A program made the translations under genes and the position numbers. Of a stretch of 64,000 bases of DNA, positions 9,950-54,826 are shown piece by piece (within the stretch, counting starts at the first letter, position 1; every line of letters begins with the position of its first letter). The DNA lies in contig OZ316894.1 of NCBI GenBank assembly GCA_973895155.1, forward strand, positions 6,782,234 to 6,846,233, read 5' to 3'. Below the pieces are notes generated by a model, which saw nothing but the letters and a program-made list of their open reading frames with translations, was not told the origin of the DNA and searched no databases. Origin of the DNA: Marsupella aquatica (Eukaryota; Plantae; Marchantiophyta).

Positions 9950-10660
9950 TGCACAAAAGATGTTGAGGTGAAAAAAGAAAAGATGTCGAGGTGAAGCAAA
10001 AATGTTGGTATGAAAAAATTTGTCGATGAGAGAAAAAGTTGACGACGCGAACAAAAGCTATTGGTGTGAAAACAGTTGTCGATGAGAGAAAAAGACATCA
10101 AGGTGAAAAAAAAAGTTGAGGAGAGAAAAGATGGCAAGGTGAGAAAAAGATGTAAAGATGATGAAAACATGTCGAGGAGAGAAAATATATCGAGGGTGAG
10201 GGAAAGATGCCCGAGATCCTCACTTCTTTTCTTTTGAATGACCCATCACGCGCGAATAATTATAGGGTTTTTTATTGGGTTTAGTGAAATACTTTTAAAT
10301 TTTTGTTGAAGAACATTAGGGTTATTTTAATCCAATTTTGAGAATTATAAGAATCATAAGAATCATAGGGTTTTTTAAAATCAAATATGGGAATATTCTT
10401 TGAATATTTCATTAAGTTAAGGGTAAAAAAATTCAGAAAAAAAAACTTTATTGACTTAACTTTTAGGGTGTTTATTCCCCCAAAACTTTGAGCGTGATCT
10501 GAGACACCCCTTGGATTGAGGCCCCAGAGGAAAGATGTCATGGTGAGGTAAAGAACACAAAAAATGTCATGCATTGCACATAAGATGTTGAGGTGAAGAA
10601 AAGATGTTGAAATGAGAAAAAAATGTCAAGGTGAGACAAAGTTGCCGAGGAAACACCAAA
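9950..10660 (-). repeat. Opposite-orientation array of the same minisatellite (AAAGATGTYGAGGTGAGAA)
   Basis: Repeated GATGTCGAGG/GATGTTGAGG cores at ~20-bp spacing in 9950-10210 and 10530-10660; reverse complement of the 9200-9420 units. Confidence 0.65.
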
Positions 10661-11989: not shown

Positions 11990-14900
11990 GTGTCGCATGC
12001 TCTATAGTCCAATCGCCTGGCAGTGTCGGTGGTGAACGACTGGCGATAGTGATTTGGTGAAGAGATCCGCACAGTTGTCTGCACTTGAAATTTGTAAAAT
12101 GTTGATCTCTGTTCCATGTAACTCATGGGTGTAGAAAAACTTTGGAGCTATATGCTTCACGCGATCTGCTTTATACATGCTGCGTTATCCTCAAAGATGT
12201 TAGTAGGCTTCGTTAGTGTTGGTAGGTCGCATTTGGTGTTGATGTGATTTATAAAAGATCGTAACCAAACGGCTTCATGACTAGCCTCATGTAGAGCTAA
12301 AATCTCTGAGTGATTCGATGAGGTTGCTGTTAGGGTTTGTTTCACGCTTTTCCAAGAAAAAGCGGTACCCCCTATAGTAAAAACATATCCGGTTTGGGAT
12401 TTTGCGGTGTCAGTGTCGAAAAGATATCCGGCGTCCGCATATCCTATGAGTTTGTGGTTTGCACCGAATGGGTAAAATAACCCGGTATTGGTGGTGCCAC
12501 GCAAATACCTAAATACGTGCTTAACTTCGTTCCAGTGTCTGGCTGTGGGGGTTGCACTATGTCTAGCTAGTAAGTTAACTGCAAATGCAATGTCAGGTCG
12601 AGTCTGATTTGCTAAATACATTAATGCTCCTATCGCAAAAAGATACGGAGTTTCCGGTCCTCGGGCCGGTCCTAATATTGGTTCATGTTCTTCGCGCTTG
12701 CGGAAAACATCAGTATTATTTTCTAATGAACGTACCACCATTGGTGACGTCAATGGGTGTGCTAGGTTTATATTGAACTATTTTAGGATCTTTTCAGTTT
12801 GTGTTGTTTGATGGAGCATCATGCCAGTAGACAAGATCTCCAATTGTAAGCCTAAGCAAAAGTTTGTATGTCCAAGGTCTTTCATCTCAAATGTTGATTT
12901 GAGACGAGTAATAATATCTTCTGTAATTTGGGGTGTCCCAAATATGTTTAAGTCATCGACATAAATAGAAACGATGACAAATTCATCATCCACATGTTTA
13001 ATAAATAAACATGGAGTAATTACATCATGAGAAAAACCCATGGCAATCATTTCATCAGTGAATCTTTGATACCATACTCTGCCACTTTATTTCAGGCCAT
13101 ATAATGCCTTCAACACGCGGATAGCTAGTCCACGGCAAGTATGTCGTACGGTTGACACAGGGGTGTCATTGTTATGAGTTACATGTGTAGATGACACATG
13201 AGATGTAATTTGAGGTAATTGGTTTATAATCTTATGTAAATATGGAATATGCGATGTAGTGCCTTGAGCTAAAGCTCGGCAACGTTGCTCCAACTCGGGA
13301 GGTGATCGCATGTATAGACAAGTGTCTAAAGTTGCACATAGATATGCGGTTGCGACATCCAGTTGTTGCATCTTAAGTTTATGGAAAATGGCAAATCCGA
13401 TAAGGTATCAAAATGTTGTGCTATCCATAACCGGTGAGTAAGTTTCATCGTAATGAATTCCCGGTTGTTGGGTAAATCCTTTCCCTACCAGACGTGCTTT
13501 GTAGCGTACAACCTGGCCTTTATCATTTCTTTTGCGGACGAAGGTCCACTTGTAGCCAATGAGATGTACGTCTTGCGGTGTTGGCTCAACTGGGCCAAAA
13601 GTGTGTCTGCTTAGTAGGGAATCTAATTCTCCGTTGATAGTTTTTTGTCATTCAGGCCAATCTGGTCTGTTTTGGCATTCTAAGATGGATATTGGTTCGG
13701 GTGTATCATCATTGATATGTGTTGCCACCATTAATGCAAAAGCATCATCTATTGAAGTAGTATTTCTATCCCACATCGCATCCATCGGTGTGTGCGTAGT
13801 GGATAGAGATCTCTTCATGAGTTGTAGATTCGGTATGATCGACATCAGGTGAAGGGGGTATAGATGAGCCATGCCTTCTTGGTTGTTTATCTTTTGATCC
13901 CAAGGGTCTACCACATTTGGCACGAGGCTGGGATGTACTTGCTGGCTCACTTGATAATTCGATGCGAGCAGATGCTCTCACAACTGGAATATGTGAGCGG
14001 GTAACTTTTGGTGTATCAACAAAAGCGTCTGGAAGTTCTTCCACAATCTTGTGGAGTTGCAAAATTCGTTAAACTTCTTTCTCTCCCTGATTGGTTCTAA
14101 GGTCTTGCCAAAATGGCGAATGTCTCTCCCACTCCAAAGGTGGTTGTGGGTGTTCAGGGGTTATTAATGGTGGGTAAATATGCTCATCAAAATGGCAATC
14201 TAGAAATCTAGCTTTAAAAACGTCGCCCGTTGTAGGCTCCATATATCTGATGATAGACGGTGAGTCGAATCTGATATATATCCCCAACTGTCATTGGGGT
14301 CCCATCTTGGTTTGTTTGGGTGGAGTAATGGGGACCATTACTTGACATCCAAATGAACGAAAATGGGATAGATCGGGTTTGATACAGTTAGCAATTTGGT
14401 ATGGACTATAAGTATTGAAAGCTGATGGGCGGTATTGAATTAATGCGTTAGCCTGTAATATGACATGTCCCCATGCTGAGACGGGTAGTTTTGACTGCAT
14501 TAGTAGTGGGCGTGCAATTAGCTGAAGGTGTTTAATGACAACTTCAGCTAATCCATTCTGGAAATGCACATGGGGTACGGATATTGTACATCGATGCCAA
14601 GTGATGTACAAAAGTCGTCAAATGTTTCAGATGTGAATTCCCCTGCATTGTCCACCCTTAGTGTCTTAATGGGGTGATCTGGAAATTATGCCTTCATGCG
14701 CAAGATTTGCGCCAAGATGCGAGGCATAACCATGTTCCTCGTTGAAAGCAGGGTCACATTTGACCATTTGGTTGATGCATCGATCAATACCATAAAGTAG
14801 CGAAATGGTCCGCTCGCTGGGTTAATTGGCCCGCAAACATCTGCATGTATGAGTTTCAGGAATTTTGGTATCTTGGTTGGCAATTTTGATGTCGTGGGCC

Positions 14901-16599
14901 TTGTTATTAATTTGCCGCGTGAGCATGCAGTGCATGGGGTGCTAGCTAGAATGTGGCGTATATTGGTTGGGATGCCGCATGAATTCTTAATAATTTTGCT
15001 TAGCATGGATTGGCCGGGGTGGCCGAGGCGTGCATGCCAGAGCGTGGGCAATTCGCTTGGTTGTGCATTGTTATGCAAACATTCAATTTGAGTTACGTAA
15101 AACCCGCATGGGTACGAGAAAAGAGTCTCTTTAATGATTTTCCCCGTAGGGGTATTTTTGACCAAATGGATTACTTCCTGGTCTTTTGTATCGCCTGCTT
15201 GAACGTATAGTCCATTTGCTCGTATATCTCTAAAACTGAGGAGGTTACGGGTTGCATTCGGGGCGAAGATAGCAGATTCTATGTGGATTTTTGTACCCTA
15301 TGGGAGTCTAATAGAAGCTGGGCTGAAGCCCTCTTCTATTTGGCTAGGGCCATTGATAGTGGTCAGTGATCTACGTGAAGGTGTGATCTTGTGGAAAAGG
15401 TGTCTATCCCGGAGGATAGTATGCGTAGTCGCACTGTCAATAATGCATGTGCTAGGGCTATTTAGGCCTGGGGTTGTGGAGCTACTTGCCACTAAATGTG
15501 CCTCGGGTTGGACAGGTGGATTTGAAAAGTCTTGGAATGGGTCGCTAGACTCCATAAACGCCCCGTGGGTCTCACGGGGTGGTGCCCTAGAGGTTTGTCC
15601 ATCCTTGAGTGACTGTTGATATAGGGATCTAAGATGTTGCAGGATTCTGCAGTTTCTTGCTAGGTGGTTTGTCATGCCGCATTTGTGGCATTTTGGGCAT
15701 TCCCGTTGTTGTCGAGATTGTGACCAATCATTTCTTCGGTTGTTGTTATATGTTCTCCCATCGGCGCGTCCTCCGCGTCCGCCATGTCCTTCACGTCCTC
15801 CGCGTCCTCCACGGCCTCCACGTCCTCTAAGGGGCCGTCAGAAATTTTGTTGTGGACGTTGGTTAAAGAAACTCCCCCTGTTGGGAGTGTTTCTCCGGTT
15901 GCCATTCCTGGTGCGCTTAATACCCTGCCTTGATGTGGAGGGTTCAACGATTTCTATATTATGGGTTTCACTTTGTGGTCCTGGGGTTAGTGTACCCGCA
16001 AGGCGTTTTCTAGAGTTAACTAAAAGAAGCTCTTGGTTTCTTTCTGTTACTAGGAGGTGGACGATGAACTCTGAGTATTGCCCGAACTTCATGTTCCGGT
16101 ACTGAGTTGATAGTAACACGTTCGAAGAATGAAATGTGGACAAGGTCTTTTCTAGCAGGTCCTTGTCGGTGACTGGCTCGCCATAGAGTGCAAGGGTTGA
16201 AATGATTCTGAAGAGCTCGCTATTGTAGGTTGAAATAAATGTAAAGTCATGGACCCGTAGGTTTAGCCAGTCTTGCCTGGCTCTAGGTAGTTCGACCAAT
16301 TTTTGGTGGTCGAATCGGGTCTGAAGCGCTGTCCATAGTTCGCGAGGGGTTGAGAGATGCATGTATTATCTTTGCAAGAACCTATGGATATGGCTTCTAA
16401 GAAATACTAGGGCCTTGGATTCATTGGCTTTGGTTAACGGGTCTGGTTGGGGTTCGCCAGCTAGTATGGGTTGAGTTATCTCTATAGCTGGGAGTAGGGT
16501 TAGCGAGGTTAGGTTCTCCTTGAGATTCATGGACCATTCTAGGTAATTGCTACCATCAATTTCTAGGGCTGGAAAAGTTAATTTCTCGAGGTTGGCCAT
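11990..16599 (-). pseudogene. Copia gag-pol polyprotein, disrupted by stops and frameshifts
   Basis: ORF fragments show Gag (ELWTALQTRFD, CHKCGMTNHLARNC zinc knuckle), protease (CIIDSATTH), integrase (WHARLGHP, CTAC, IHADVCGP, QNGLAE), RT (LDVATAYL, LYGLK, IYVDDL) and RNase H (GYADA, SNHSE, IFEDN). Confidence 0.93.
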
Positions 16600-26790: not shown

Positions 26791-27978
<1,188 letters not shown>

Positions 27979-34806: not shown

Positions 34807-35552
34807 CCTAATTTTAATTTCTAAACTAAAAGTCATAAAAATATGAGACTTTGCTGTGTATCCCATTTCGCATTCAATGTTGAGGTTTTGACATTTAAAA
34901 ACTAAGATGCTTCATATTTGGAGGATGGATACGATATGGGATACCCCGTATTCCACTTCGCATCCAATCTCTTTTTTTTAGCTAAAGAGAAACAAAAACT
35001 GGACATTTGAAGGTTGAATCTCAAACGGGATACACCGTATCCCATTTGGGATTTGTCCTCGCCATTTTCATAAAGATTCTCACGTTAGTCAAATCTAATT
35101 TTCAGGGAATATGAATTTGTATAGACGGTGTGCATTCGTCAAGAGGAAGAGGATACGGAGCGAGAAAAAATGAGCGGAAAATTTTGAGTGTGGATCTTCT
35201 GTTTATAGTTTTCTCCCTGACCGTGGTTAGTTTTTGACTGTAGTTGCATCACAGTTGGTTAAATGTTACCATTGATAAGAATCGTTTGGGAATATTCTTA
35301 ACGGGTAAACCGATATCGGCACTTTTACTGTGTTTGTTTTATCTTTTTTTGGAATTCCGCGGTTCCAAAATGGGATACGCCGTATCCCACCTTTGTATTC
35401 GTGTCAATTTTTCCCATTTTTTAAAATCTAAAAACTAGTTTTTAGAGGGAATACTAATTCCGTATCCAAGACTTTTTTGCTTTAGAAACTTTTTCCGCTG
35501 CGGACAAAACAAGAATTGTGGTCACACTTCTCTTTTGGTCCGTCACTATGTT
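34807..35552 (-). mobile_element. Terminal fragment (copy 1) of an unclassified DNA-transposon-like element with palindromic GGGATAC-N3-GTATCCC boxes
   Basis: About 35020-35552 aligns with about 54285-54826, and both end at ...GGTCYRTCACTATGTT. Multiple GGGATACNNNGTATCCC palindromes. Flanked by GGGGTTCTGT at 34797-34806 and 35553-35562. Confidence 0.6.
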
Positions 35553-38500
35553 GGGGTTCTGTGATAACATGGTTAAGAAAACAAACAACAAAGAAAGTGA
35601 AAAAAATTAAAATTAAAATTATTAAAAGTCTAATTAAAGACCCTTTAAAAGGCTATGAGAAAAGAAAAAGGCTCAACTAAAAAAGTATGTTGAAACAATA
35701 ATGCAAGGAGGCTCTTCCCTTCTAGTTGAGGATCGTGGGTCCGGATTATATAGGATCATTTCTAGTTCCTATGAGAGCAAGGTGTAAGAGAACATTGACA
35801 GACTTGTGTGAGGTGACAACCTACTCTTAAGCATGGAAGATCTTACACTAAGACGGACACTAAGACTCTCTTCTTGGTTGGTAGATGACAGAAGTTCCTC
35901 TCTCACAATTCCAAAAGATTGTCCAAGCTCGACCTGAAGCATGGACTAAGTCATGGTGTGAGAGAAACTCTATAGCTTCTAGTGAAGGGGAGTGGATTCT
36001 GCTCCAAATGAGAGAATCTGATAGTAAAATACTTTGGTGGCAAAATGGATACCAAAGAAGGATGGATGATCAACCAGTGCACCCACAAAGATCTAAAAAA
36101 TATGATGGTCTTCCTAGTCCATTGAACTCAAATTTTGATATTGATACTATTTTTGAGTTCTTAATTTAAAATATCAGGTTTTAAAAATTTTATGTGGAAA
36201 ACATGTATCAAATCTGTAATGAAAAATACAAAATGTCGATGTGTAAATTATAAATACTATCATTTTCTTTCTTAGTTTTTGAATACATTTTGAAAAATTC
36301 ATAAAATCTGGAAAAACAAATTAGTGTATTGGACACATTTTTCAAGGCTTCTTGTTTCAAGCGCTAACATAATTGTTTTTGAATGATTTTTAGGGGTAGT
36401 GAAAGTCAGACAACAAATTGACACTTTGGAACTTTAAACTATAAAAATGATATAAAATGACATGATATTTTTTACAAACTAAGATATTAATAAAACATGG
36501 AGAGTTATATGGGTGCACCTAAAGTTCTTGTGATGTGAAGGAAAAACATATATTATTATTTCAATTTTAAATTTAGCAAATGCTATCATGCGAGACAGAG
36601 AAGAGGAAGAAGATGGAATGGATGCTAATTGCTTATAATTAACCATTGATTGGTTTGTGAAGGAAACTAATTTTTCCAATTTTTGATTTGAATTCTAAAA
36701 TCAGATTAGAATTACTTGGAAGATGATATGTTAAATTTATATAAATTTGAGCCAAAATTGATTAGAGAATTGAGAAATATGATCAATTTAGTTTCGACGA
36801 AAAACTTCATGGATGGCGTGAACAATCTGCGTGTAAGAACATCCAGGACGTCACTTTGTTGACGGCTCAGATAGCCTCCATGTAAGAACGTCCAGAACGT
36901 CACCAAATTTTGAAGTGATCCAAGACGACAATGAAAAGACGTCAGAATGGTTTGACATCCTAGAATAAAGCCGTCCAAAACATCAACTTTGACAGCCCAT
37001 AATTTTTGCACCACTTGGCCAAAAATTTAAAAAATTTAGTGCATTATAAAGGTATATATTGTAGACCACTACCAAATTCTTTTGACTCCAAGCAAAAATT
37101 GAATAATCACGACTTTTCATTCTTGGAGAATCATTCTAGTATCAATGAGAATGACAAATCAAAATTTTCAACTTCTAAGAGTACAATTATCAGTTTTGAG
37201 ATTTCAAAAGATTAGATTCTTCTTGTTGCATTAGAATTGAGGTATGAGTGAGAGGGGAAAATCTATTGACCTCAAGAAACCTGAGGAAACGATTATACCT
37301 TTTGAAAGTCAAGTGTTGAAACTTACTCGATTGCAACCATATTTCAAAGCAATCAATAGTCTTCCTACCAAAATTGTGACACACAGATGAAGCACATTGA
37401 ATGCAATAGGAAGTTGGACTATTGATCACCTCACGAGTAGTCGTTCTACTAATATCAATTTGCGATTGGGCCAAAATTGGTGGTATCGCAATAAAACAAG
37501 ATAAGATATCGAGTTTGTGCTCCTATTTTGCTTGATAGCAGACCAGGAAAAAAAATTGAAAAGAAACCCGTGTTAAGGATTGAATCATCCGTGCCAGAAA
37601 GATTAGAAATTGGGGTATTTACACCAAAAAATTTGGATTCTACGTCAGATATCTCAAGTTCCAATTCAGATTCTAGCGGAAGTATAGTGGTTAGCACTCA
37701 AGGATCAATCAATCATTTTGTATCAATTTTTCTTAATCTAGCATCTATCTAAGCAAAATTTCAACTACTGTCTATACCTCTTACTTGGTGACTCTTACCT
37801 CCCACCTCCATAATGGCTAAAAATATAGTAAAGTTTGATAAATTTTATGGGAAGGAGAAGGAAGATGCGAAAACCTACCTTAAAGAATATGAAGCATCAA
37901 CTGCCACAAACAATCAAAATACAGATAATGAGAAGGTAGTAAACTACCTTAATTACAGAGAGGAGATAGAAGAAAAAGATTTGTATGAATATAATAATAT
38001 ATATGCACTTCAAACTCAGAATCTAGACCTTAGTATTTTTCTATAGCATAACTTGGACCTTCTCAAAGATCGGTACCAAGACCACCGATGGGACCTTCAG
38101 GAGGTTATCCACCTAAGGGGAGGTGGATTACATTTTTGTTGATGAAAAATTAATAGTAAATCGAGTGGTAGACACTATTGGTAATACTGAAAATCTGGAA
38201 GAAGAACTGCTAGTAAAATCCACACCCTTATCTCTAGAAGTTTTTGGGCAACCCTTGATTGGAAACGTTGTTGACACGGAAGTGAAAGATTTAGTCAAAA
38301 CGGGAGTAACAGGTCAACCAAATACTAGGGTGCACAATCGTGTCACATTTTGGATACTTTTGCAACCACTCGATCTAAAGAAAAAGGGGAAGAAGAAAGA
38401 AATATTGATTATAAGAATGGAAAGAAGAAAAAACCCTCTAAGAAGAAGAAGACCTCCTTTGAGGAAGGTTTACCTAAAGATCAAGATCCAGTCTATGATA

Positions 38501-41500
38501 GTCATGATCCTAAATATTTTGTACCTGACATCTCAGATGATATAAGGGATTACTTAGCAAATGAGATTTTGGAGAAAATACAAGACCCAAAACATGATCC
38601 ACTTGAGGTGAGTGTACCTAAGAAATTGATTTCTGAAAAGAGATCTCATTATGACATAGTTCAAGATGTCACGAATCATCTTGCCAATATTACAATAGGA
38701 GAATTGTTGCAAGATAATTCTATCTACCGAAAACAACTGAGAAGTTTACTAGTGGGAAGGAGAAGACCTGTCAAGTTACCTACTACTAAGATTTTGAGAA
38801 TGGAGTGGAAAGACCAAGAACCACCTACAATCTACCTTCTAGTAGAAGGTTGTGTAGTCAAAAGGTACCAATGGATGGAGGTTCAAATGTCAACCTTATG
38901 ACCAAGACGGTAGCTTTTGACCTTGGGTTTACAACATTTGAGCATACCCCTAAAATTTTGAGAATGACAAACCAATCACGAGTTATTCCAATCGGAAAAC
39001 ACAGTAAGGTGCCAACTAATATAATAGGACTTAATTTTTATCTTCATTATGTTGTGATAGATCATGAAATCCCATCAAGTTTTCCAATTCTATTAGGCAG
39101 GCCATGGCTCTATAAGGCCAAGGTGGAAGTTAATTGGGAACAACAAGAATCATGGTCTGTTAAAATGAATTGGGGACCGGAACCTTACCTCGGAGAAACA
39201 TCTACTGAAGAGGGGTACACTTCTGACTATTCCGACTCTGGGCTAATAACCGCATTTCACAAATTCCAAGACTACTCAAGTGTGCATTACATAGAAATCT
39301 ATGAAAAAGGTGAGTTATCGCAAGAAAATGAACATTCAAAATTCTGACTTGTGAAATTGATGACCACCAACAAGAGTGAAACTTCAAGGTTGCCACCGAC
39401 AGAGGAAGACATTAGGGAATCACAAGGAGTTGAAATGACTGAAGGTATGGTAGATCCGCAGCAAGCACAAAAGATTGAGATTGAACCTGGAAAGTTTATC
39501 AATATTGGTAAGCATATCCAATGTGAGTTAAAAGAAAAGTAGATTGATTTGTTGAAACAATACAAAGATGTATTTGCATGGAATCATCAGGACCTTAAAG
39601 GCATACATCCATGGCTTGCGGAACATCGAATTGACCATAATGAAGGTGCAATACCAATTTGGCAAAGGCAATACCGTTTTAACCCAAAATATTTTTTAAT
39701 GGTGAAGAGAAAAATAAACAAGTTGTTGGAGACAGGATTCATTTATCCTGTGCTTAGCAGTGAATGGGTGTCTCATATAGTAATTTGCCTAAGAAGGCTA
39801 GCCCCGATGGAAAACTTAAAATCAGAGTTTGTCAATATTTTAGAAAGCTTAATGTCGCAACTCAAAAGTATCATTATCCTTTACCATTTATTGATTTAGT
39901 ACTTGACATAATTTCACAACATGAGTTCTATAGTTTTCTTGATGGTTATTCAAGATACAATAAAGTTCCCATACGGAATGAAGACCGTGATAAGACCACC
40001 TTCACTACCGATTGGGGAACTTTTGCCTTCAATGTTATGCCTTTTGGATTATGCAACGCCCTAGGAACATTTTAGCAAATCATGATGATGATCTTTCAAG
40101 AATATTTGAGACATTTTCTTAAGATTTTTATAGATGATTTCTGTGTCTATAGCTCCATGACACAACATCTTGATTGCTTAGAAAAGACTTTTGAGAAATG
40201 TAGAGAAACACAACTCTTCCTACACCCAAAAAAATGTTATATAGGGATGAGAGAAAGAATTCTTGTGGGTCATTTTATATCTCAGAGAGGTATTGAAGTG
40301 GGCAAAGATAAAGTTAAGGTTACTGTGGAATTTACTACCACCCAAGGACTTAAAAGAACTTTGAGCCTTCTTAGGCCATATTGGATATTATAGACGATTT
40401 ATTCATAAGTATGCTGACATTGCAATGCCCTTTGTCGGATGCCAAATTAGGTAGTAGTTTTTAACTAAAGTTAAAAATGGACTAACTATAGTTAGAAATA
40501 ACCCCAGTTAGAAGTAGACGTAAGGTTAAAGTAAGTAAACTGATGCACAATGGGTCAAGGAGATTAAGTAGGGATAGTTAGGAAGGTCTTAGTTAAAGTC
40601 TAGTTGAATTAGGATAGGTTAGGAAATCTCAAGAAGTAAAAGTAGAAAGTGACAAATGGTCTACCCTGTAGAATTATAGAAAAGTCTCCAAATAGAGTTA
40701 GACCTGGAAATCCAGTAAGTAGATAGTCTTAGGTTCAAGGGTCACACTGGCAAAATTTCAGACAAAACGAAGGGCAGGGCACAATGCTGGAGATTTATGA
40801 AACTGGAGCTTTGTTATAAGTACACTTAAGACGGGATACCATAGAAGTAGGGGCGAGTTTTGAGTACAAAGCAAGTAGTGCTACGGGAGTTTCTCTAGGA
40901 GCCAGGTGTCATCATGGGAGTCCTTCTCATAAGGATACAAAATGCAGGGACAATCTACGTAGAAGCCAAGGAAGGAGCAGCAACAATCAGGCAGAAATTC
41001 AAGGGTGTAATTAAGGGAAACGAACATCCTTCTATAAGGACAATGTGAATTGACTCGGGAGAAGCGAAGGAACCACAGAAATTGCTTGAAGGTAAGGCAT
41101 GAATTGAATTGAGCTACCGGGAGAAACTCTGTGGTGTTGGAAGGAACTCTTGGGATAAGAAAATCTCATCCCCCGGGCAATCTAGTGGTGGCAAAAGATT
41201 CAATTTCGTGCCGCTGCAATTGAAGCTTGGTTGCTAATGGGGAAATTGTTGGTAATTGCCTGAAGCTTTGTATTGTTGGAGTCCGCTGCTGGGGAACTCG
41301 CTGCTGAAGAGAGTGATGTTGTGCTGCCATTGAACTCATTATGATTGCTGCGCTGTTGAGAAGTCCTGGTCCTACTTCACTAAAGCTTGATGCTGCTGAA
41401 GGAAATTTGATCCTGCTACTCGCTGCTACTTGAACTTGAAGCTGTTGTCCTGGACATGCTACTGTGGACTGGAAGCAACCTTACTGCTGGCTCGAAGCTA

Positions 41501-41519
41501 TTGGAAGATTGAATGCTGC

Positions 41520-42289
41520 TGTGACACGGGTAATGTGTCACTTAACCAAACGCAGGTCCTAGATTAGGACTTATACGGTCATTAGGACCGTAACCGTAGC
41601 GTAGAATAGCACGAGTAGCCGTCTTTGCCATTATGAATAGATTAGGAGTAGGTTAGTTGATCGAATGATTACAAATTAAGAGAGGATTATTACGCTCGAC
41701 TGAGGTACGGTGGATATGGCGAAGTAAAAATCCGTTAGGGGAATCACGCTTGGACCAAGATGCCGACCTCAGCTCATTATCAACGACCAAAACGGCTTTG
41801 CCCTCTCACGCTGGAGCTCATCCTGGCACCTCCCTAAGAGTAGAGTCGATGGAGCTGCAAGTCATTTGCTCATTTCCACCTTTCAAAATTTGCGGACGCT
41901 GCCATTCTCTCGCCTTTTTGGCTCGAATCAAGCTGACCTTTACGAGGAGATCATCGAGGGATAAGGGCAGATTGTGGCAAGATTTAGTCAGGGCGAGTAA
42001 GGCCTCCACCAGTAAGCGAACCGGTCGGGCGGGAACGCGGGCTCGACGAACCAGACTACAAAGGTTAGTATGACCCTTACAGCCTTGGGATTTTGGACCT
42101 TGTTTGGCGAGGTAGGTGCTAAGTTCTCCAAGACTTACTGGTACTCTTGTCCCGAGAAAGCCGCTTACGAAAGAAGATACGCAAAGTTGGTGGCCAAGGT
42201 AGCACAAGTTAACTGCGAGAAGACAGCCATCACCAGGGATTCCAGCTACAACGAGCTACGAGACTACATCACCGAGCTATATCTCACCG
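41520..42289 (+). repeat. Remnant (first 770 bp) of the 5' LTR of element C
   Basis: Roughly 94-95% identical by eye to 46118-46887. Similarity stops at TCACCGA, where the sequence jumps to the gag/protease linker (SPKYRQQLKEMLIGKRR, homologous to element A NSIYRKQLRSLLVGRRR). Confidence 0.9.
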
Positions 42290-45200
42290 AAATATCGGCA
42301 ACAACTCAAGGAGATGCTGATAGGGAAGAGAAGGTGACGGCTTCCTCGGGTAAGCACCTTAGCCGATTGTATGATGATTTACCAGGACTTGGGAGCGCCT
42401 GAGGTCTCTATCGAGATAGCGGGTTGTACTGTTCGGTTTGTACCGGTAGATGGTGGTCCAGAGTAAATATCATGACGAAGGACACTTTCGTGAGGTTGCG
42501 ATATACATCTTATCAACCTACGGCCCGTGCCATTCGGTTAGCAAACGGCGCCCAAATCATGCCATTGGGGATGTTGACCAAGATATCCACGTGGATTGGA
42601 GGCCTCAAGTTTTTTCTAAATTAGCTGGTGATGCGACCAGTCCGACCCTCGTCTTATCCAGTACTGTTGGGCAGACCCTGGTTATACGGTGCCCGAGTCG
42701 TTACTGACTGGGGAAGGAAGGAGTTACGATTCGGTAACCCGACTACTATGGTGTCATGGAAGGAAGAGGACTATCAGGGTATCAGGGAAAAACACCCCAG
42801 GGATCGGAGGAATATGACTCGGAGGAGGAAATCTCAGAAGAAGAGGTAAATATTTTGGAGTTAATCTCTCAGCTTGACGAAGAGGAAGTCTTTGGGGTAA
42901 ATGCCACCCGAGAGGCCCATATTCTGAACCAGCCCAGACCAACAACCCCAATCAAAATGCCAAGGACGTCAGCAAGTGATGATGCAGCGGTGGGTGAAGA
43001 ACCCCCCGTAATGGTGAGCCCTACGATGGTCGTTGGCCAGGGCACCTTACCACATATACTTGAGGGGAGCGCTACCAAGGCCGCCACTCCTCTCACAAGA
43101 AAGACAGTAACATGGAGCCCCGATGTGCCATCCATAGTGGAGGAACCCAAGGAGCTCCCCAAGGTGCAACCGACAGTCTGGGAACCTGTGACCTACGATG
43201 GCACCAGACTCAAGGAATTGGAGGACCATCTCCACCGGGCCACCAGAGACCATGTGGATGTAATCCGCAAAGAACACTATAGCAAGTACACCACAAGGGG
43301 GGAGAGGACATTCAACGTTGGTTATGGCCTACGAGCCCCGGAGGAGAACTCTATCCAAGAACTCCTATCAGAATATGAGGACGTCTTTGCATGGAGTCAT
43401 CGAGACTTAACCAGAATTTCACCGGCCTACGGCGAACACGTCATTGATCTAAACTTGGGTGCTCATGCCGTCCGAGAGAGACAACGAAGACTAAATCCAA
43501 GACATTCCATCTTGGTAAAGGAGGAGTTAGATCAACTGATCGTGGCGGACATCATCTACCCTGTCTTATCTAGCGAATGGGTATCCCCCATTGTGGTGGT
43601 TCCTAAGAAGGTAGGGCCCGATGGTAAACCCAAGATTCGAATATGCCAAGACTATCGGAAGCTCAACGACGCTACTCGGAAAGACCATGACCCGCTTCCC
43701 TACACGGATATGGTCCTTGACATGGTAGCCCGAAATGAGGTATACACCTTCCTGGATGGATATTCGGGTTATAACCAAATTTGGATCAGACTATCGGACC
43801 AACTCAAAACTACGTTCATCACAGAGTGGGGAACCTACGCATTCAGACGGATGCCCTTTGGCTTATGCAATGCCCCGGCTATGTTCCAGCGAATCATTAT
43901 GAATATTTTCATGATTTCTTACGAGAATTTTTGGAGGTCTTCATAGATGATTTTGCCATCTTTGAAACAATCGCTCAGCACCCAGAACACCTAAGGCGGA
44001 CTTTTGAGCGATGTCGAGAAGTAGGGTTGAAGTTACACCCGGGTAAATGCTTCTTTGGGGTAACGAAAGGAGTGCTGCTCGAACACCGAGTATCCAAACG
44101 AGGAATCGAGGTGGACCACAAAAAGGTGGCCGCTTGGATGAATGTCCCTTACCCAACGGACCAAAAGGCAGTGCGATCCTTTTTAGGCTGCGTAGGATAC
44201 TACCGATGATTCATTCAAAATTTTGCCAACATAGCCCTACCCCTCACAGAAATGATGAAGCAAGAAGCAGTCGTAGAAATGACTCCCCGCAGAAGGGCAG
44301 CCTTTGATGAACTAAAAAACCGGCTAACTGTGGCTCCGATCTTGACTACCCCTGATTGGAACAAGGAGTTCCATGTGTATGTCGACGTATCTGGGTTTTG
44401 CATCGGGTTAGCCCTGAGCCAACTGGACGACAAAAAACACGACCACCCCATATACTATGCAAGCCGACAACTGTTTGCAGTGGAGAAAAACTATTCGCCC
44501 ACTAATCGGGAAGCCTTGGGGATCATCTACTCGTGTAAGAAGTTTCGCCATTATCTATTGGGATATAAGGTGGTGTTCCATACTGATCATGACAGCCTGA
44601 AGTACATAGTAAACAAAGCGGACTTGACGGGGAGAATAGCCCGTTGGGTCCTACTGCTCCAAGAATTTGACTACAAAGTCAGAGTACGACCTGGAAAGAC
44701 TCACGTGAATGCAGACTTCTTCTCAAGGATTGAAGGGGAATCGGACAACGCACCTGTCGATGATGCGTTCCCTGATGAAGAATTATTCCGCGTGGAAACG
44801 GACCAACCGACTTGGTACGGGGACCTAATCACCTTCCTCTTAACGGCCCGCATTCCCAGTAACATCAACCAGGAGGCCACGTCAATCTTCCTGCGCAAGG
44901 CCGCACCGTACATGATGATACGCGGACATCTGCATAAGGAGAGCGTCGATGGGAAGATCCGCAGATGCCTAGATTATAACGAGACGATCATTGTCATGCG
45001 AGCTATGCACGAGGAGGAGGTAGGGGGGCACTTCGCCCCAATCACCACGGCTCACAAGATCTTGAATGTAGGTTACTGGTGGCCTACGCTTCATCACGAC
45101 GTAGCCCATTTTATCCGAGGTTGCGACTTGTGCCAACGCGCGGGCAAACCCCGCAGATCAAGTAATCACCCTCTTACCTCGATCTTTCCCCTTGCCCCGC

Positions 45201-46078
45201 TTGAGAAATGGGGCATTGATTATATTGGACCATTCACCCCTGTAACCCGAGGTCGGCGTTGCCGGTACATCCTTCTCGCTATCGACTATTCAACTAAATG
45301 GGTGGAGGCCCAGGCAACGGTCAAGGATAACGCGGCCACCACCGCCAGGTTCTTGTTCGAACAGGACTTCACCCGTTTCGGACCTCCCTTGGAGTTAGTC
45401 AGCGACCGCGGGACTCACTTTTTGAAGGAAATGGTCAAAAAACTGACTAACCGTTACGTTGTCAAGCACAGGAAGACTATCCCTTACCATCCCAAATGTA
45501 ACGGACTAGTAGAGCGGGCTAATGGCATCATAGAAAAAATCCTCAATAAAACCGTGGCCGCCCACAAAACGGACTGGGACGACAAGCTTTTTGCGATGGT
45601 CTATTCTTACAACTTGGCATTCAAGACTACTACAAACCATAGTCCATATTTCTTGGTATTTGGACAACATGCGCTCGTACCCGTCAAGTTCAAGGTCGAG
45701 ACTCCTCGGGTAAGCATCCCCCATAGGTTACCGGAGGATGCTAGTTTGTCCGATCGAGCATATAAGATCGACAGTCTAAAAGAAAAGAGACTCTGGGCAT
45801 CGCGACGCGTGGCTGCCAAGCAGAAAGCAACGAAGAAACAGCACGACAAGGGACTGCGCCAGGTGAACATCGCTACGAGAGATCTCGTCCTTCTGTACGA
45901 CAGTAGGTACATGTACTTTCCAGAAAAGTTACACACACGCTAGCTGGGACCTTTCATTGTCCAATTGATGTACCCGAACGGATCCTTGCAACTATCAACG
46001 TACGCCGGCGACCCCTTTCCCAATTGAGTTAGTTACGATCGTGTGAAGAGGTACTTTCACCAGAATGACGAGCGTAAT
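42290..46078 (+). pseudogene. Element C pol (protease, RT, RNase H, integrase) with several stops and frameshifts
   Basis: VDGG..VNIM, VLLGRPWL, WVSPIVVVPKK, FLDGYSGYNQI, FIDDF, YVDVS, NREALG, HTDH, GGHF..CDLCQ, WGIDYIGP, VSDRGTHF, NGLVER. No chromodomain seen after integrase. Confidence 0.93.
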
Positions 46079-46117
46079 GATGTTCGCGAGGACGCTTCAC
46101 ACTTGAGTGGGGAGCTA

Positions 46118-49100
46118 TGTGACACGAGTAATGTGTCACTTAACCGAATGCCGGTCCTAGATTAGGACTTATACGGTCATTAGGACCGTAATCGTAGTGT
46201 AGAATAGCACGAGTAGTTGTCTTTGCCATTATGAATAGATTAGGAGTAGGTTAGTTGACCAAATGATTACGAATTAAGAGAAGATTATTACGCTCGACCG
46301 AGGTACGATGGATGCGGCGGAATAAAAATCCGTTTGGGGAATCACGCTTGGACCAAGACGCCGACCTCAGCTCATTATCAACGACCAAAACGGCTTTGCC
46401 CTCTCATGCTTGAGCTCACCCTGGCACCTCCCTAAGAGCAGAGTTGATGGAGCTGCAAGCCATTTGCTCATTTCCACCTTTTAGAATTTGCGGACGCTGC
46501 CATTCTCTCGCCTTTTTGGCTCGAATCAAGCTGACCTTTACGAGGAGATCATCGAGGGATAAGGGCGGATTGTGGCAAGATTTAGTCAGGGCGAGTAAGG
46601 CCTCCACCAGTAAGAGGATAGGCCGGGTGGGTAAGCGGGCTCGACAAACCAGACTACAAAGGTTAGTATGACCCTTACAGCCTTGGGATTTTGGACCTTG
46701 TTTGGCAAGGTAGGTGCTAAGTTCTCCGAGACTTACTGGTACTCTTGTCCCGAGAAAGCCGCTTACAAAAGAAGATACGCAAAGTTGGTGGCCAAGGTAG
46801 CACAGGTTAACTGCGAGAAGATGCCATCACCAGGGATTCCAGCTACAACGAGCTATGAGACTACATCACCGAGCTATATCTCACCGAGGAAGGGCTTAGA
46901 TTGGTAGCAGAGGCAATTCTTGAAGTCCCCGCGAAGTTCTTTAGGCTGAAGGGCAACCAACGGCTTACTCAAGCGGAGTTTGACAAGATCCCAGGGTACC
47001 TCCACCAGCAGATCACAGCCGAAAAGTGCCAAGAAGATATCAGCAGACAACGGGAAGCAGCGCGTAATCTTACGTTCCTCGGGGAAAGCTCCAATGCCTT
47101 CACCCGAGATATGGCTACCCCAACACCACCAGCCCCTCAGCCAATGACCACTGGCGTACCTCCAAACCGGTCCCAAGTCCGTCCCGTGAACAACACCGAG
47201 TGTTCCTCGGACTCCGAGTGTGTTAGTCCGCAGCTTGAGCAGCGTTCTTGGAAGTGGGCAAGGATGACGCCGGCCCCCAAAGCAACAATGCGAACCAATG
47301 CCGCCCCTGCACCTGCCCCGGCAAACCCCCCAACCAACCAGACCCGACGGCCCACGGATAACCCGAAGTCCAACTTATTATAGGTAATCCGCGTCCCGGA
47401 AATAGTCTGGATTGCAATCAAGAAACTCGACCACGCGGACTATCTCAAGGAGCATCAGTTGGAGCAGTTCGCTCACTTGCTATGGAGACCGTGCGCAGCC
47501 GGGCCAAAGGAGATTTATGAGTTCATCTCCAATTTTGACACTGACGCATCAACCACCAAGGTTTTAGGGCAGACCTTATCACTCACAGAGCATCGGTTAG
47601 CATAGATTTTATGTCTGCCCATCGGGCCGGTGTCAGTTGAACTCCGAATTTGGTATAAGGAGTATACGCCGCGGCACTTCAAACCCGAGGGTAAGACAGA
47701 CAACGGATACAAGCAGGGGTCATGCACCAATTTAATCTGTATGGAACGGCTTAATTTCATACGGACTACCCATCACATGATTGAGCCACGATCCGAGATC
47801 TCCCTCTGTACGATCGTACGATAAACAATACAAACGACAAAACTGGGCCCAATTCTTTTACCGTAGGTTTTCGGGGGAGCTTAAGCAGGCTCAGGGAGGT
47901 ATGGCTATCGGGGGGAAGACTTACTTGGGAAGTCATATAGCCATCATCCTCGCCTGGTACAAAGCGCGGCAGGAGGCCAGGGGAAAGAACATGGCCACCT
48001 CAGCCCCGACTAATGTCACCCCCGCTACGGAGGAGGCTACCCTGAGCAAGCGGACTACCGTGCCTCGGGCAAACCCCAAGCCGGAGACCCCGACAAATAC
48101 TCCATCACCCCCTCCTGTTGAAATTCTGCCGCCCCCTTCCATGGAGCCTCCGCTACCTGCAGTACAACCACCCCAATCCCTCCACCACCTGCAAAAACCT
48201 TCCCCTCCCCAGTACAGACTACGGAGGAGCTTACCGCCCCGCCCGAGGAACCACCGGTGTCCGAGAGGATGGAGGACTACCAAGTAGCCCCGGGGACCAT
48301 GGCCTACGACCTGGTCCAGAAGTTTAGTCAGACTTTGTCAGGGGAGCTGGCGACGTACATCGGACAACAAGTCTCGGCGTACTTTCAACCAACCTTCTTC
48401 ATGTTAGAGCACCAACCACGGATCGTAAGCCGCTTGGAGGAAGAACTCATGGCGAAGGGGAATGAGATCGGGCGCCTCCAAATGCTGGTAGAACACCTCG
48501 AGGAGGAGGCCACTACCCGCCGTGAGGAATTAGTCCGCACCGTCGAACAGCGGGACGGACTAACCCAGGAGTTGAGCGGGGCACAAGTGGATCTCAAGAA
48601 GCTGGACGACACCGTGCTTCAGTTGCACTCAGAATCCTTGGCTTGGGTTACCAGTCTGACCGACCTCAACAACCAATTCCTACAAGCAGCTCTACAGGTG
48701 GCTAGTCTCTCCGCCGAACGGGATAAATTGCTAACGCAGGACCAGACCTATCGTGACTCCATCGACCAGCTCAACCTGGAGGTAGCACGGCTCCAGACAG
48801 AGGCCGATGAAGCTACAAACAAGGCGGAGAAGGTAGTGCGGGACAACAAGGCCTTGCAAGACCGCGTTACCCTGCTCGCCGTCTAGCGGGGAAGACCAGG
48901 GCCCACCCCTGATCAAGGCGGCTTGAGGTCTCGCCCCAACAGGGGGACAAACCCTGGTCCAACCACAGCACGCACGTAAGGGGTGGTTAGCAAAGGGTGT
49001 GAGCAGGCACCGCGCGGGGCAGTGGAGTCAGCGGCATCTTTTTGATTAGGCTTAACAACAGAATAACTGTCATTAGGCGCCGATTAGCGGTGCAGTAGGA

Positions 49101-49948
49101 AGAATTAAGATAGGATCAGCCGACGTGGGTCCATCAATGGACTAGATTTGGTTAGTAGATTAGCTGCTGCCACCCCGGTCAGTGCCCTTGCCGCCGACAG
49201 TCAATCGGTCAGCGGAATATAGCCGGTTAGTCAGAAGTTAGTTAGCCAGTAGGCATTACCCCGGGAGGTAGTATCTTCCGGTTCCTTTCCGCAAATGTAG
49301 TATTTAGGCTTCCCCTTCCGCTGTGGGAGGGGGAGAAGGCTTAGTTATTTCAGCATACAAAAAGGCAAGGCACAGGGAGTCCCGGCCTGAGCAGGGTCAG
49401 AGTGCACTAAGGAGTGAGAGCCAGAGTCGAGCTTGCTGGGCAAGTGCGGGACGGGGCCTCGTAGAGACTGGGCATCGACTGCCTTAGGCCTGCTGACCCC
49501 CTTAACAAGTCGAGTCAATATGTAAACTGATTCTTTGCTGAGTAAATTTAGTCTTTTCCCTCTAATGTTTCCGCGAGTAACTGGTGTTGTGTGTATGCTT
49601 TGTTTGGGCAAAGGCGCCATTTCAAGGGACGTACCGGGTGCGGACTAATGGTAGGGATTGCCACCCATTGCATGTCACAAGGTTCTGTCGCGTCGATGGC
49701 TTGAAAGCCCCAAGCCGGGAGTTAGTCCGAGTCACTAACTGTGGGAATATTCTAGCAGTGGAAAACAAATATACCTATGACTAGTGCGAGTTGCGTAAGT
49801 GTTATACAAGTAAGTATATTACCTTAGCCCAACTTAGGGCTAATCGTGGCCACTACACACCTCCTTGCCCGAACCCTCACCCCTATTGGTGGTCAACGTC
49901 ACCCCATGGAACTAAACTGGATTTAAGGCCCGGGTTAGGGGCGCGATA
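46118..49948 (+). repeat. 3' LTR of element C (3831 bp)
   Basis: Begins TGTGACAC directly after the PPT, identical to the element's 5' end, and ends at the TSD. Confidence 0.75.
46668..48886 (+). pseudogene. Accessory ORF (~740 codons when repaired) within the LTR: N-terminal helical part, Pro-rich linker, plant-transposon-protein-like domain, Pro-rich linker, C-terminal coiled coil
   Basis: Consecutive ORF-track fragments 46668, 46901, 47630, 47781 and 48257 join through 2 TAG stops and about 3 frameshifts. The 5' copy (42070-42289) shows the unshifted N-terminus. Motifs EFISNFD..TKVLGQTLSLTEHRLA.ILCLP.G and NWAQFFYRRFSGEL; heptad-rich last ~160 aa. Confidence 0.75.
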
Positions 49949-52900
49949 GCTGCCCTGATGTTGAGGATAGTTTAGTGCTATGAGAAGCTCAATGCTGGAG
50001 CTTCATGCTGCTGATCAGTCAAAGCTCTGATAGGAGAAGCTCTAATCAAGAAATTACTACTGAGCTCTTTGCTGCTAAGCTATGGAGAGCCGCTGCTGCA
50101 GCTAAGATTGGCTAAAAAGCTACACTGCGGGATAGAGCTGACTCGTTGCAGCTTAGTGCTGCTAAAGGAAATCAAATAGAGCTGGCTAAGTAAGGTTGCT
50201 GCTGAATAAGAGAAGCTATGTTGCTTCTATGCTGAGAATTGTGGATAGAGCATACTGCTGCAAGCTTCTCAGTAAGCTGCTGGAGCAGCTTCATGCTGTT
50301 GAGTAGCTATGGAGAAGTAGAGCTTGGGAGCTAGGCTGATAGAAGTCAATGTTGTGGAGGTGAGCTTGCTGATTTATGAGCTATGGAGTAGCTGCCAGGG
50401 AGAGCATGAAGCAGCAGCACTTCGCTGCTGCTCGCGACTTGTGAAGGGAGGAAAAAAATTGCATTTCACCAGCAGTCTTCGTGAAAGGAGGAAAAGGGGG
50501 TGGTCTTTGCCAAAACTTACCTGGTAGTTGGCTGTCGGTAACTGGGCTTGAACTCGCAACCTGCTATGTGCTAGGCACTTCATTTGGGATACCAAGGGAG
50601 TGTTCTTAGCTCTTCGTTTAAGGAGTTCATAGAAACTCTACTTAAGCTTGCGGCAGCATCGGTTCTGAGCCGTTTGAAGGACTTTGAGGCCGGGTCTAGG
50701 CCAGCAAGGGGACCAGGGAGACCAGGGGAGGGCCCAGCAGGGGTGCCTCAACTTCATGGAGGCCCGGGAAACCATTTTTTTATCCCAATAGGATATGCTA
50801 AGGAGTTTTCATGAAGGCTTGAAAACCACTATTTGTAATAAGTTGTCGGGCTATTATGAAGCCCAACACTTGAGGGGTGCTGGTATACAATGAGTTGTTG
50901 CTAGATAGCTTGGCCTTGCACTCGCACAGTAGCCATAGAATAACTGCTAATGCCAATATTCTAGTTGGAACCAACTCAAGCGGTAGTTGTACTATTCGGG
51001 TAAGTTTACAACTGTGTAAAAGCTGAGATAACCCTACTTCTGTGGTAACCCGAGTCTCAGCGGCAAAACCCGAGACTCAGTGGTAACCCAAAACTCAGTG
51101 ACGTATTAACCCTCAGTTGTAGGCCAAACTTGGAGTTGTTACCGTGAGAAATATTATGTTCCAGTTAGTTTACAACTTGCGCGGTTAGTTGTAAGAGTTA
51201 CCGAAGGGGGTACCCCGGTTACTCGTCTCGCCGAGAGGCTACCGCTGTTCAGGTCTTGTGTGGAAACCTGAGTACTGGTTGTAGTTAAGTTAACCTGCGG
51301 TAAAATAGAGATTTAACCCAGGTTAAACTTTAGCAAGAAAGTAGTGAGTTTGCCGTAACTACTAACCTGAGTTAGCACCTTAGGCTTGGTTTGGTTTGGC
51401 GTGGGTTTGGTTTGGAGCCCTGAGGTGTGGAAATAAAGAGGAGAAGCAGGGGGCTGTCTCCTCACTTGTTCAGCTGTCCACTTTCTTAGAGGCTGGGAGC
51501 TTGGGGGCTGGGCTCTTCCTTGGAGAGCAGCAGCATGAGCTTGAGGCACTAGGAAGGGGGGAATAGTGAACTAGTCCACTAGGTAGGCAGCAAGGAGAAG
51601 GTCAAGGGAGGTGTTGTGATCTAAACTTGTTTCTATTCTCTCTAGTAAAGACTTGCGTGTAACCCTTAGTCTTGAAGCAGCTGTCTAGTGAGATGTCGAA
51701 CCAGTGAGCATGTATGTGGACTCAAGTGTGATTTGATACCGAAGAGGTGAAGCTTGAAGCTTGAGGATGAGAGCAAGGTCAGCACTTGTCTTGTTGGGAT
51801 AGCAAGTGGTAATCCTGCAATCCTTTGTGAAGGAAACATGGTACTCTCTTGGGTGAAGGTTATGTAAGGAGTCTGCGGGGATAGCTTGTGGGTGTCCACT
51901 GACCGTGTTGAGATCGGGAGTGGGGTGTTGGGAGTGTTTTCCAGTGGGAGAGCAGGGGAGTGATAACCACCCTTCAAGGTTATCTTTCCAGCGGTGGAAG
52001 TAAAATTATCCAGTTGGGTGTGTGAGTGAAGAAGAAGAGAGAGATTAAGGGAAAGTGACCTACTGTCCTGCTATTCGCCCGTCCTAGGAACCCGAACAAC
52101 GATAAGAAGGGGCAATAGTGGTAGATTTAACTCTAGTGAAGAGTTAAGCCCCATTGCAAGGTGTTGACACCCCTCATCAAACTTCTCAAACAAGATGTGG
52201 AGTATGTTTGGACCAATGAGAGAGAGACTACTTTTCAAGAGTTGAAATCAAGACTCATCAAAGCACCAATACTTCAACCACCAGATTGGACCAAGACTTT
52301 TCATATTTTCATTCACTCTTCAGTTTTTGCATGGGAGTAAATTTAAGCCAAAAAAATGAGCAAGCGCGAGATCACCCTATTTATTATGCAAGCAAACAAC
52401 TAAGTGCTTCAAAGAAGAATTGTTTGGTAACTGAAAGAGAAACATTGGCTATTATTTTTGCTTGTAAAAATTTTTGCCATTATCTCCTAGGTTACAAAGT
52501 TATTTTCCATACTTATCATAATTCTTTGAGATATCTAGTAAACCAAGTGGATCTATCAAGAAGGGTGGCGAGATGGGTCTTACTTTTGCAAGAGTTTGAT
52601 TATGAAGTCCATGTAAGACCGGGCAAACATCATGAAAATGCAGATTTTCTCTCAAGACTATCTGGTAAGGAAAGCAAAGCTAATTTAGAAGACTCTTTTC
52701 CTGATAAAGAAATTTGGCATATAGAGGGTGAAACTTCCATCTATTATGATATTGTGAACATGTTAACCCATGGAATGATGCCAGAAGGCTTAAATGCAAA
52801 GAAAAACTTGTATTTTTACAAAAAGTTGGACCTTATACTTTTTAATTAAAGGTACCCTCTTTAAGTTAACTCTAGAGCAGAAGCTGAAGAGATGTCTTGA

Positions 52901-53099
52901 GCCTAAGGAGAGTATGAAAGTTATAACAGCCTTACATGCTGAGGACTTCGGGGGCCATTATGCAGTGAATACCACAGTTAATAAGATTTGGGATGCTAGC
53001 TATTGTTGGCCAACTATGCATAAAGATATTCTCGACTTTATTAAATGATGCGATCCTTGTCAACAAATAGGGAAGCCAACAACAACTTCTAGGTGGCTG

Positions 53100-54826
53100 A
53101 GTCTTTCTTAAGCTAAGATCTTGGAAGAATCAAATTCGTCCTCAATGCAAGAAACTTTCAAAATGGGCCATATGCACGTTTCAACAATCTCATCAGGAAG
53201 TCCATCCAAAAGTAGTCTAGATTCCCTTCGGCAACGTTTCTACTCAATTTGTTTCTTTTTTTCTTTCTCAAATATGGTCACTAACCTTGCAAAGACAAGG
53301 TTTTGAGGGACAGTCATTCCAAACCAGTTTGACACAAAAAAGGAATATCTGGAACGATGAGAAAATGGAGAAGTTCTATTTTTGAGGAACCTACAAAACA
53401 GGGATCAAAAGAATTACTTTATTTCTTTGATCAAAAGTAAAACATCATGTCAAAATATTTGTGAGCCAAGAATACTCAACAAAACTCCAAATATTTGTGA
53501 GCCAAGAATCAAGAAGATTCAATGGGAAAAGTTAACCCAAGGATCTTTGATCCAAGTCCGAAAACACAAGTATGTCAATCGGTGATACTTGTTTTGATCA
53601 TCACAATAATAATTACTAAAAATCAACAGAATGTAGACAACCACTCAAAATAGTTCTTGATCGAATTGGAACTCCTTGCTCATTCTTTTTGCAAAACTCA
53701 ATTCAGAGAAAATTTAGACTATCTTGAGGATCTACGCCTCCCATCCAAACGCAGTAAAAGGAAGCACTTTGAGTTCAACTAATCTCTTATACAATCGACG
53801 AGCACGTTTATCTTGGTTTTAAATTTTGACCATCATTGAACTCACTAGAGAAAATGTAAGTTTGAAAGAAAGGTAAAGCTTTAATAGTTTGTCACTCCAA
53901 AATGGCCGGCTCGAAGGAAGCAAGAGCTTCTGTCGAAGTTGATCAGAATCTAGCCTGCAAAACAATCACCAATACTTAAGATATCTTTTGCTATTGCAAA
54001 AAAGCTATTGCTGAATATCCGAAGGGATACGCGATATCCCACTTCGCATTCAACCTTTGCCTTTTAGACCTAACCTGATTGATATTCAGAGATTGAATAC
54101 CAAATGGGATATTGGGTATCCCGCTTTGCCTTCAACATTGAAATTTCTACCTTTTGATTCTGAAATGAATGTGATTTAGTAGTGGAACCCTAAACCCTGA
54201 GCGCATTATCCCATTTTTAAAATTTCTTGCATTTTCCAACCAAGAGCTTCATATTTAGATGTGGGATGCGAAGTGGTATACCCGCGAAGTGGGATACGCC
54301 GTATCCCATTTGGGATTCATCCTCGTCATTTCCAAAAAGATATATGACTCTCATCTATTTTTGTAGTCTGATTTGGGGGATATGAATATGCATACAGAGT
54401 GTGGATTCCTCGGGAGCAAGCAAATGCAGGAGCGAGAAGAAATGAGCCAAAAGTTTTGAGTCGGGGCTCTCCTATTTATAGTTTCTCCCTGACCATGGTC
54501 AGTTTCTAACCATAGTATTGTCGTAGTTGATTAAACGTGACCGTTAAAAGGAATCTTTTAGGAATATTTTTGACAAGTAAACCATCCTTACCCCTTTTAC
54601 TGCGTTTGTTGGTTTTGTTTTTTTAATTGCGGTGGGATCCAAAATGCGATACGTCGTATCCCTGCTTCGGATTCAAGTTATTTTTTCCCATTTTCAAAAT
54701 CTAAAATCTAGGTTATTAGAGGGAATACTAATTCCGTATCCAACACTTTTTTGCCTTAGAATTTTTTTCCGCTGCGGGCAAAACAAGAAGTGTGGTCACA
54801 CTTCTCGTTTGGTCTATCACTATGTT
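53100..54826 (-). mobile_element. Terminal fragment (copy 2) of the unclassified element, carrying a TATA box and a decayed gene
   Basis: Shares its ~540-bp end with 35020-35552. Palindromic boxes at ~54024, 54106, 54291, 54645. Minus-strand CTATAAATAGG at 54471-54481. Confidence 0.6.
53110..53390 (-). pseudogene. Decayed exon encoding an F-box-like motif
   Basis: After acceptor TTTTGTAG: FLKNRTSPFSHRSRYSFFVSNWFGMTVPQNLVFARLVTIFEKEKKKQIE*KRCRRESRLLLDGLPDEIVETCIWPILKV. LLDGLPDEIV..IW..L fits the F-box LPDE(I/L) pattern. Confidence 0.5.

Follow-up and report, generated by a model that had tools for sequence, protein, structure and literature searches.

Within the 64,000-nucleotide stretch of the liverwort Marsupella aquatica analysed here (the window; contig OZ316894.1, positions 6,782,234 to 6,846,233), the interval 41520-49948 holds one broken member of a non-chromoviral Ty3/gypsy family with multiple copies. 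The element very probably has a long terminal repeat (LTR) of 3.8 kb with an accessory open reading frame (ORF) inside the repeated unit (Table 1).

The limits of the element were placed using contigs from four public sequencing runs (two studies, at most four samples, one possibly the window's own source). In the window the element lies between two copies of GCTGC, and in 4/4 runs one contig joins the left flank directly to 49949 with a single GCTGC. The left flank in these contigs is 20-30 letters long and equal to 41485-41514, 41490-41514 or 41495-41514. Such empty sites, located in other copies of the host repeat, show that the insertion is exactly 41520-49948. They also exclude chance as the source of the GCTGC match, which is a true target-site duplication (TSD), as the initial annotation had read it.

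The window also confirms the earlier reading that the 3' LTR stands directly behind a polypurine tract (PPT) and has the same sequence as the 5' end of the element, 726 of 771 positions being identical between 41520-42290 and 46118-46887 (94.2%). Over 770 sites the two copies are set apart by 36 transitions, 31 of which fall at CG or CHG, and by 8 transversions (Kimura two-parameter distance, K2P, 0.060), a pattern such as would be expected of a methylated, decaying copy. At a deletion joint, 42290/42291, the 5' LTR copy jumps into gag-pol. The alignment with P0007, the closest unbroken gag-pol protein (1954 aa), begins at residue 703, so the rest of the 5' LTR, the primer-binding site (PBS) as well as about 700 gag-pol codons have been deleted here.

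Extent of the LTR and lineage of the element

The LTR's 3' end coincides with a sharp step in the contigs. Depth falls 21-, 14-, 20- and 38-fold in the four runs between bins 49940-46 and 49947-53, and 4, 4, 3 and 9 contigs depart at 49946 with a canonical end and continue into unlike sequences (agreement 0.48-0.64), so the LTR of the family ends there. Over 42291-50150, the 14 LTR bins exceed the 14 internal bins in median depth by factors of 6.1, 8.3, 9.7 and 7.5, the lowest LTR bin tops 13, 13, 14 and 14 of the 14 internal bins, and the ORF bins are as deep as the non-coding LTR bins; summed contig depth is not copy number, and we relied solely on the existence and place of the step. Factors above 2 would be consistent with numerous solo LTRs or with non-autonomous partners. 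The joints listed (15 of 94) are all low-depth, and no repeat of either LTR end, nor any other repeat, was found within 46118-49948. Contig depth and joints thus bear out the proposal that 46888-49948 belongs to the same family-wide unit as the LTR start and is not an unrelated insertion.

Reverse transcription makes both LTRs of an element alike. Given the PPT-adjacent start and the end at 49948, the whole stretch would therefore have stood at both ends of the element, unless later rearranged, and each insertion would carry two copies of the gene, only 771 bp of the LTR being seen twice here. No complete element or resolved PBS was recovered from the contigs, which behind the LTR end consist of mixed loose ends; two PBS candidates, a loose end of 255 nt and a PBS-like consensus, proved too weak for use. 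A close full-length element was found neither in viral contigs nor in species genomes (three loci, two short contigs) nor in metagenome contigs (50 loci, best match 51% over a long stretch). This gap and the short doubled segment would suit a tandem or recombinant locus whose intact relatives combine a short LTR with an internal ORF, as do the related elements L011 and L013 with an ORF of similar layout, but such an origin is highly improbable in view of the true TSD, the absence of recurring LTR ends within the stretch, the depth of even the lowest LTR bin, the low depth of the listed joints and the presence of the ORF start in both repeats.

A canonical LTR end motif, expected at the last two bases, is not present in this copy; other copies have the canonical end. 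The candidate main promoter and poly(A) region comprises a purine run (49325-49339), an A-rich TATA-like stretch and a T/GT-rich tract. The purine run, 15 nt long and 0.6 kb before the LTR end, is followed by no canonical LTR start; it may be left over from an older PPT or belong to a hairpin.

The domain order protease, reverse transcriptase, RNase H (RH), then integrase (INT) is that of Ty3/gypsy, both in the Pfam scan and by collinearity with P0007, which aligns from residue 703 at 42284 through its end at 46066 (69% over RH-INT). The PPT before the 3' LTR, the LTR termini and a TSD of 4-5 bp are further Ty3/gypsy marks. Among named pol proteins, those of Riccia sorocarpa are the closest. 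No chromodomain was detected in the window protein P0005, which lacks the last 40 codons, or in the Pfam annotation of P0007, and an additional Tat-type archaeal RNase H (aRH) was seen neither in the Pfam scan nor in the collinear P0007. In a quick maximum-likelihood tree of 39 RH-INT rows (midpoint root; Phygy, Selgy and Tat reference sequences not included), the window groups with P0007 (97), P0008 (98) and Riccia proteins (99), and lies outside the clade formed by the angiosperm Athila-type rows (Shimodaira-Hasegawa-like approximate likelihood ratio test, SH-aLRT, 100). Phygy and Selgy are described as short and without extra ORFs (PMC6317226). At two other loci, L003:2-7375 and L004:1483-9234, the gypsy polyproteins measure 2450-2580 aa and have an additional aspartyl-protease domain behind the integrase, Pfam counting two such stretches.

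Table 1. Features of the element and its target site, in window coordinates
Feature	Position	Strand	Basis
Left TSD, GCTGC	41515..41519	.	Empty site holds single copy
5' LTR remnant, first 771 bp, ends at deletion joint	41520..42290	+	94.2% to 46118-46887
5' LTR copy of accessory-ORF start, open over ~73 codons	42070..42290	+	Repeat alignment
gag end, protease, reverse transcriptase, RNase H, integrase (broken)	42291..46066	+	Pfam RVT_1, RT_RNaseH, Integrase_H2C2, rve; P0007 residues 703-1954
PPT, ~40 nt after integrase end	46105..46117	+	Directly precedes 46118
3' LTR, 3831 bp	46118..49948	+	Repeat comparison, contig depth, empty site
Accessory ORF within LTR, ~740 codons	46668..48886	+	Frame analysis; collinear with P0153
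N-terminal conserved region, predicted helical, no family	46668..47089	+	Alignment to P0153 residues 5-50, P0149 residues 27-104
Core domain, predicted VANC/plant-mobile-domain-like fold	47381..47963	+	Profile match, fold prediction
C-terminal coiled coil, without transmembrane segment	48431..48886	+	Sub-threshold coiled-coil Pfam matches only; maximum hydropathy 0.57
Candidate main promoter, R and poly(A) region	49325..49620	+	Inferred from general plant LTR anatomy
Right TSD, GCTGC	49949..49953	.	Empty site holds single copy

The element sits within a multi-copy insert of 11.7 kb, whose ends bear an 8-nt direct repeat and which splits the RNase H of an older gypsy of the same broad lineage near 40425/52152; this older element encloses the locus (35027-54826) and has LTRs at 35027-35552 and 54291-54826 that are 77.7% alike. 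Elsewhere in the window, 7661-10635 holds degenerate arrays of ~19-nt units (families D2, D3 and D5). By their motifs, three frames on the minus strand resemble a PIN-type auxin carrier exon (4414-5340), a decayed Ty1/copia element (12157-16365) and an intronless GGPP synthase (26791-27978).

The accessory gene and its predicted fold

The accessory ORF lies wholly between the PPT and the LTR end. As the initial annotation had placed it, the ORF begins about 550 bp into the LTR (ATG at 46668, second copy at 42070 in the 5' LTR remnant), and its statement that no PBS lies upstream agrees with a search for six PBS-like motifs, none of which occurs near the ORF start. The frame continues to 48886 as described, with six lesions rather than a few: frameshifts near 46822, 47823 and 48170, and stops at 46856, 47381 and 47603. 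The 5' LTR copy reads through the first two without a break, and indels or loose ends in the contigs of other copies mark each of the three frameshifts, so that the lesions are largely copy-specific.

A phmmer search of 1.84 billion proteins with the middle part of the ORF (X at stops, E <=0.001) gave 12 matches, of which P0144 was dropped as a repeat artefact; P0171, P0172 and P0176 are excluded from the homologue alignment (A4). Two unbroken homologues were identified in the cluster listing, P0153 (906 aa) and one of 787 aa. P0153 is collinear with the window from 46677 to beyond the ORF end (E 2e-33 and 2e-8) and has the same N-terminal region, linker, core of ~190 residues, Pro-rich linker and coiled coil, thus mirroring the layout of Pro-rich linkers, domain and C-terminal coiled coil first proposed for the window protein. 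A profile made from natural homologues only matches the window at 47381-47818 (independent E-value, iE, 7.6e-35); a second match, one frame on, covers 47829-47963 (iE 1.8e-6), a piece absent from the query. Every homologue with a species name comes from the liverwort Calypogeia fissa (3 in the cluster listing, 17/17 in another listing), and the ORF is almost certainly a real conserved gene. The coiled-coil piece P0003 found no homologue among longer proteins. We detected no transmembrane segment in 6/6 proteins or pieces, including full-length P0153 and P0158 (maximum 19-residue hydropathy <=1.26), and on this ground a role as env was rejected.

The core domain probably has a fold like that of VANC and the plant mobile domain (PMD), its predicted structure agreeing with the VANC core fold at 10% identity to VANC21 (PDB 9LNK, DUF1985). 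Foldseek gave no match at E 0.001 against PDB and BFVD (0/71 at a second look), a PDB sequence search returned coiled coils only or nothing, and the model of the N-terminal region, made for the homologue P0141, was of low confidence (mean pLDDT 41). Pfam assigned no family to the core domain in the window or its homologues. DUF1985 is missing from the 25 of 93 Pfam families shown for 24 homologues and from those for the 12 matches (Atlas lead 0.86), and the PMD profile PF10536 gave no match (Atlas lead with 18% PMD members). Membership in Transposase_32, ATHILA or PMD, raised by the initial annotation, therefore has no Pfam match at the sequence level. Weak, in-register HHalign matches were obtained with ATHILA ORF-1 (E 0.031) and with Transposase_32 segments (E 0.12, reversed control 0.48), and the broader kinship to plant retroelement accessory ORFs held up.

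No VANC-type tandem target-motif array was found in the element. The word RTTAG occurs 9-14 times per kb in 46118-46667 and 48887-49948 versus 3 per kb in the coding part, which is not significant after correction. RTTAG words cluster at 46161-46250 and 49045-49241, which are candidate binding sites.

Proposed route into the LTR and possible function

Among the 50 metagenome loci, L021 (40% over RH-INT) has a homologous core (iE 1.2e-6) in an ORF ~500 nt behind the integrase; the spacer is AT-rich and without a PPT-like tract, and the contig ends before any LTR. L011, L013 and L008 (40%, 36% and 40% over RH-INT) have an ORF of like layout behind pol, followed in L011 and L013 by a PPT and an LTR of ~390 nt, and the L011 core is weakly alike (HHalign E 0.026). 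In L051 and L052 (51% and 48% identity) a PPT lies directly behind the integrase, as in the window; these contigs end within 250 nt and contain no 3' internal ORF in the short stretch available. L051 and L052 are plant-type gypsy RH-INT contigs filed in a cyanobacterial metagenome-assembled genome, likely as host-plant contamination.

The gene may originally have stood between pol and the 3' LTR and then have been absorbed into U3. By one route, plus-strand priming would have shifted to a tract upstream of the ORF, turning the 3' internal region into U3; by a second, the ORF would have recombined into the U3 of an ORF-less relative such as Diaspora, described as an ORF-less element among Athila relatives (PMC1142308).

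The gene may well encode an oligomeric DNA-binding factor that keeps the family's own LTRs active against host methylation. Given its presumed position in U3, its expression would rely on a promoter of its own within the first 550 bp, or on splicing, and reverse transcription would copy it to both element ends; solo LTRs would still contain the gene and might work in trans. The putative anti-silencing role guessed at in the initial annotation gains a structural lead from the VANC21-like predicted fold. More tentatively, the LTR of this liverwort-grade gypsy lineage might be a self-contained anti-silencing cassette of promoter, target DNA and sequence-specific VANC-fold protein, kept in every solo LTR and acting in trans on the family. 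If so, the VANC/MAIN fold would predate angiosperms, as an ancient accessory fold of retrotransposons.

It is possible, though unlikely, that the gene encodes a chromatin-tethering, integration-targeting or particle/RNA-handling factor that does not remove silencing. Such roles have been proposed for the extra ORFs of Athila and Ogre, the in-register ATHILA ORF-1 and Transposase_32 matches point the same way, VANC-type motif arrays are absent, and a PMD occurs in 57% of Ogre elements, where its role is given as not known (PMC6317226). Neither profile match is significant, however, and the sole solved structure showing this fold is that of an anti-silencer bound sequence-specifically to DNA. 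An ORF that lies downstream of the main start site, in U5 or the leader, and is translated before gag, as with Ogre ORF1 and Retrosat2 ORF0, is improbable. The first 550 bp could hold the main promoter, and Retrosat2 combines LTRs >3.2 kb with an ORF0 upstream of gag-pol (as described in PMC3485330), but the homologous ORF of L021 lies 3' of the integrase, the promoter- and poly(A)-like features, judged by general LTR anatomy, come after the ORF, and a U5 of >3 kb would need very long minus-strand strong-stop DNA. That the gene is a passenger, captured once into U3 and carried without benefit, is very improbable: this copy has six lesions and the closer relatives L051 and L052 have a PPT right behind the integrase, but the lesions are largely copy-specific and the ORF bins are as deep as the remaining LTR.

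The type and the predicted fold of the accessory gene are known ones; its place inside an LTR and its lineage are unusual. According to PMC6317226, PMC7264820 and bioRxiv 10.64898/2026.08.24.746577, extra ORFs of plant elements belong to the internal region. When the host removes the interior, the solo LTRs left behind are normally free of genes, whereas here the gene would stay in place. Sequence-specific anti-silencing proteins have been described for DNA transposons (PMC5735166), and with a candidate in a retrotransposon the question can be tested for LTR elements as well. A protein of VANC/PMD fold in a liverwort-grade gypsy would also bear on the origin of the plant mobile domain, for which gene or retrotransposon is called fully open (PMC5418596), and would offer an alternative to the proposed origin of VANC through the capture of MAIN-like genes (PMC13547354).

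Comparison with known systems

Titles and abstract openings found contain no whole gene inside a plant LTR and no VANC-fold protein in a bryophyte gypsy; earlier reports in full texts are possible. VANC21 is the protein of VANDAL21, a Mutator-like DNA transposon, whereas the window protein is retrotransposon-encoded and lies inside a gypsy LTR. Tandem target arrays are typical of VANC and none was seen in the window element, and VANC is described as dicot-specific (PMC13547354) whereas the homologues of the window protein are in a liverwort. The PMD (PF10536) of Ogre extra ORFs and MAIN/MAIL1 would belong to the same fold family, through the published structural homology of VANC and MAIN (PMC13547354) and the Atlas lead. 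Gypsy-encoded PMD-A clades are known, in a phylogeny that is described as covering angiosperms only (PMC5418596).

Ogre has its ORFs in the internal region together with an aRH, unlike the window element, which has its ORF in the LTR and no aRH. Retrosat2, RIRE3 and RIRE8 (Tekay chromoviruses) are likewise plant gypsy elements with LTRs of ~3 kb and an extra ORF (as described in PMC3485330). Compared by description, they have this ORF0 upstream of gag-pol and belong to a different lineage. The 3' extra ORF of Athila (PF03078, PF20167) is likewise a sense ORF 3' of pol with a globular domain and a coiled coil; the window ORF differs in lying inside the LTR, lacking a transmembrane segment and belonging to an element whose RH-INT falls outside the angiosperm Athila clade. 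Genes inside the LTR U3 and duplicated at both ends are known from retroviruses, namely sag of mouse mammary tumour virus (MMTV) and lentiviral nef, whose proteins are unrelated to the window protein, much shorter, and act on host immunity. L021, L011, L013 and L008 share with the window protein the layout of domain, Pro-rich linker and coiled coil, the domain being homologous in L021, but have their ORF between pol and the PPT.
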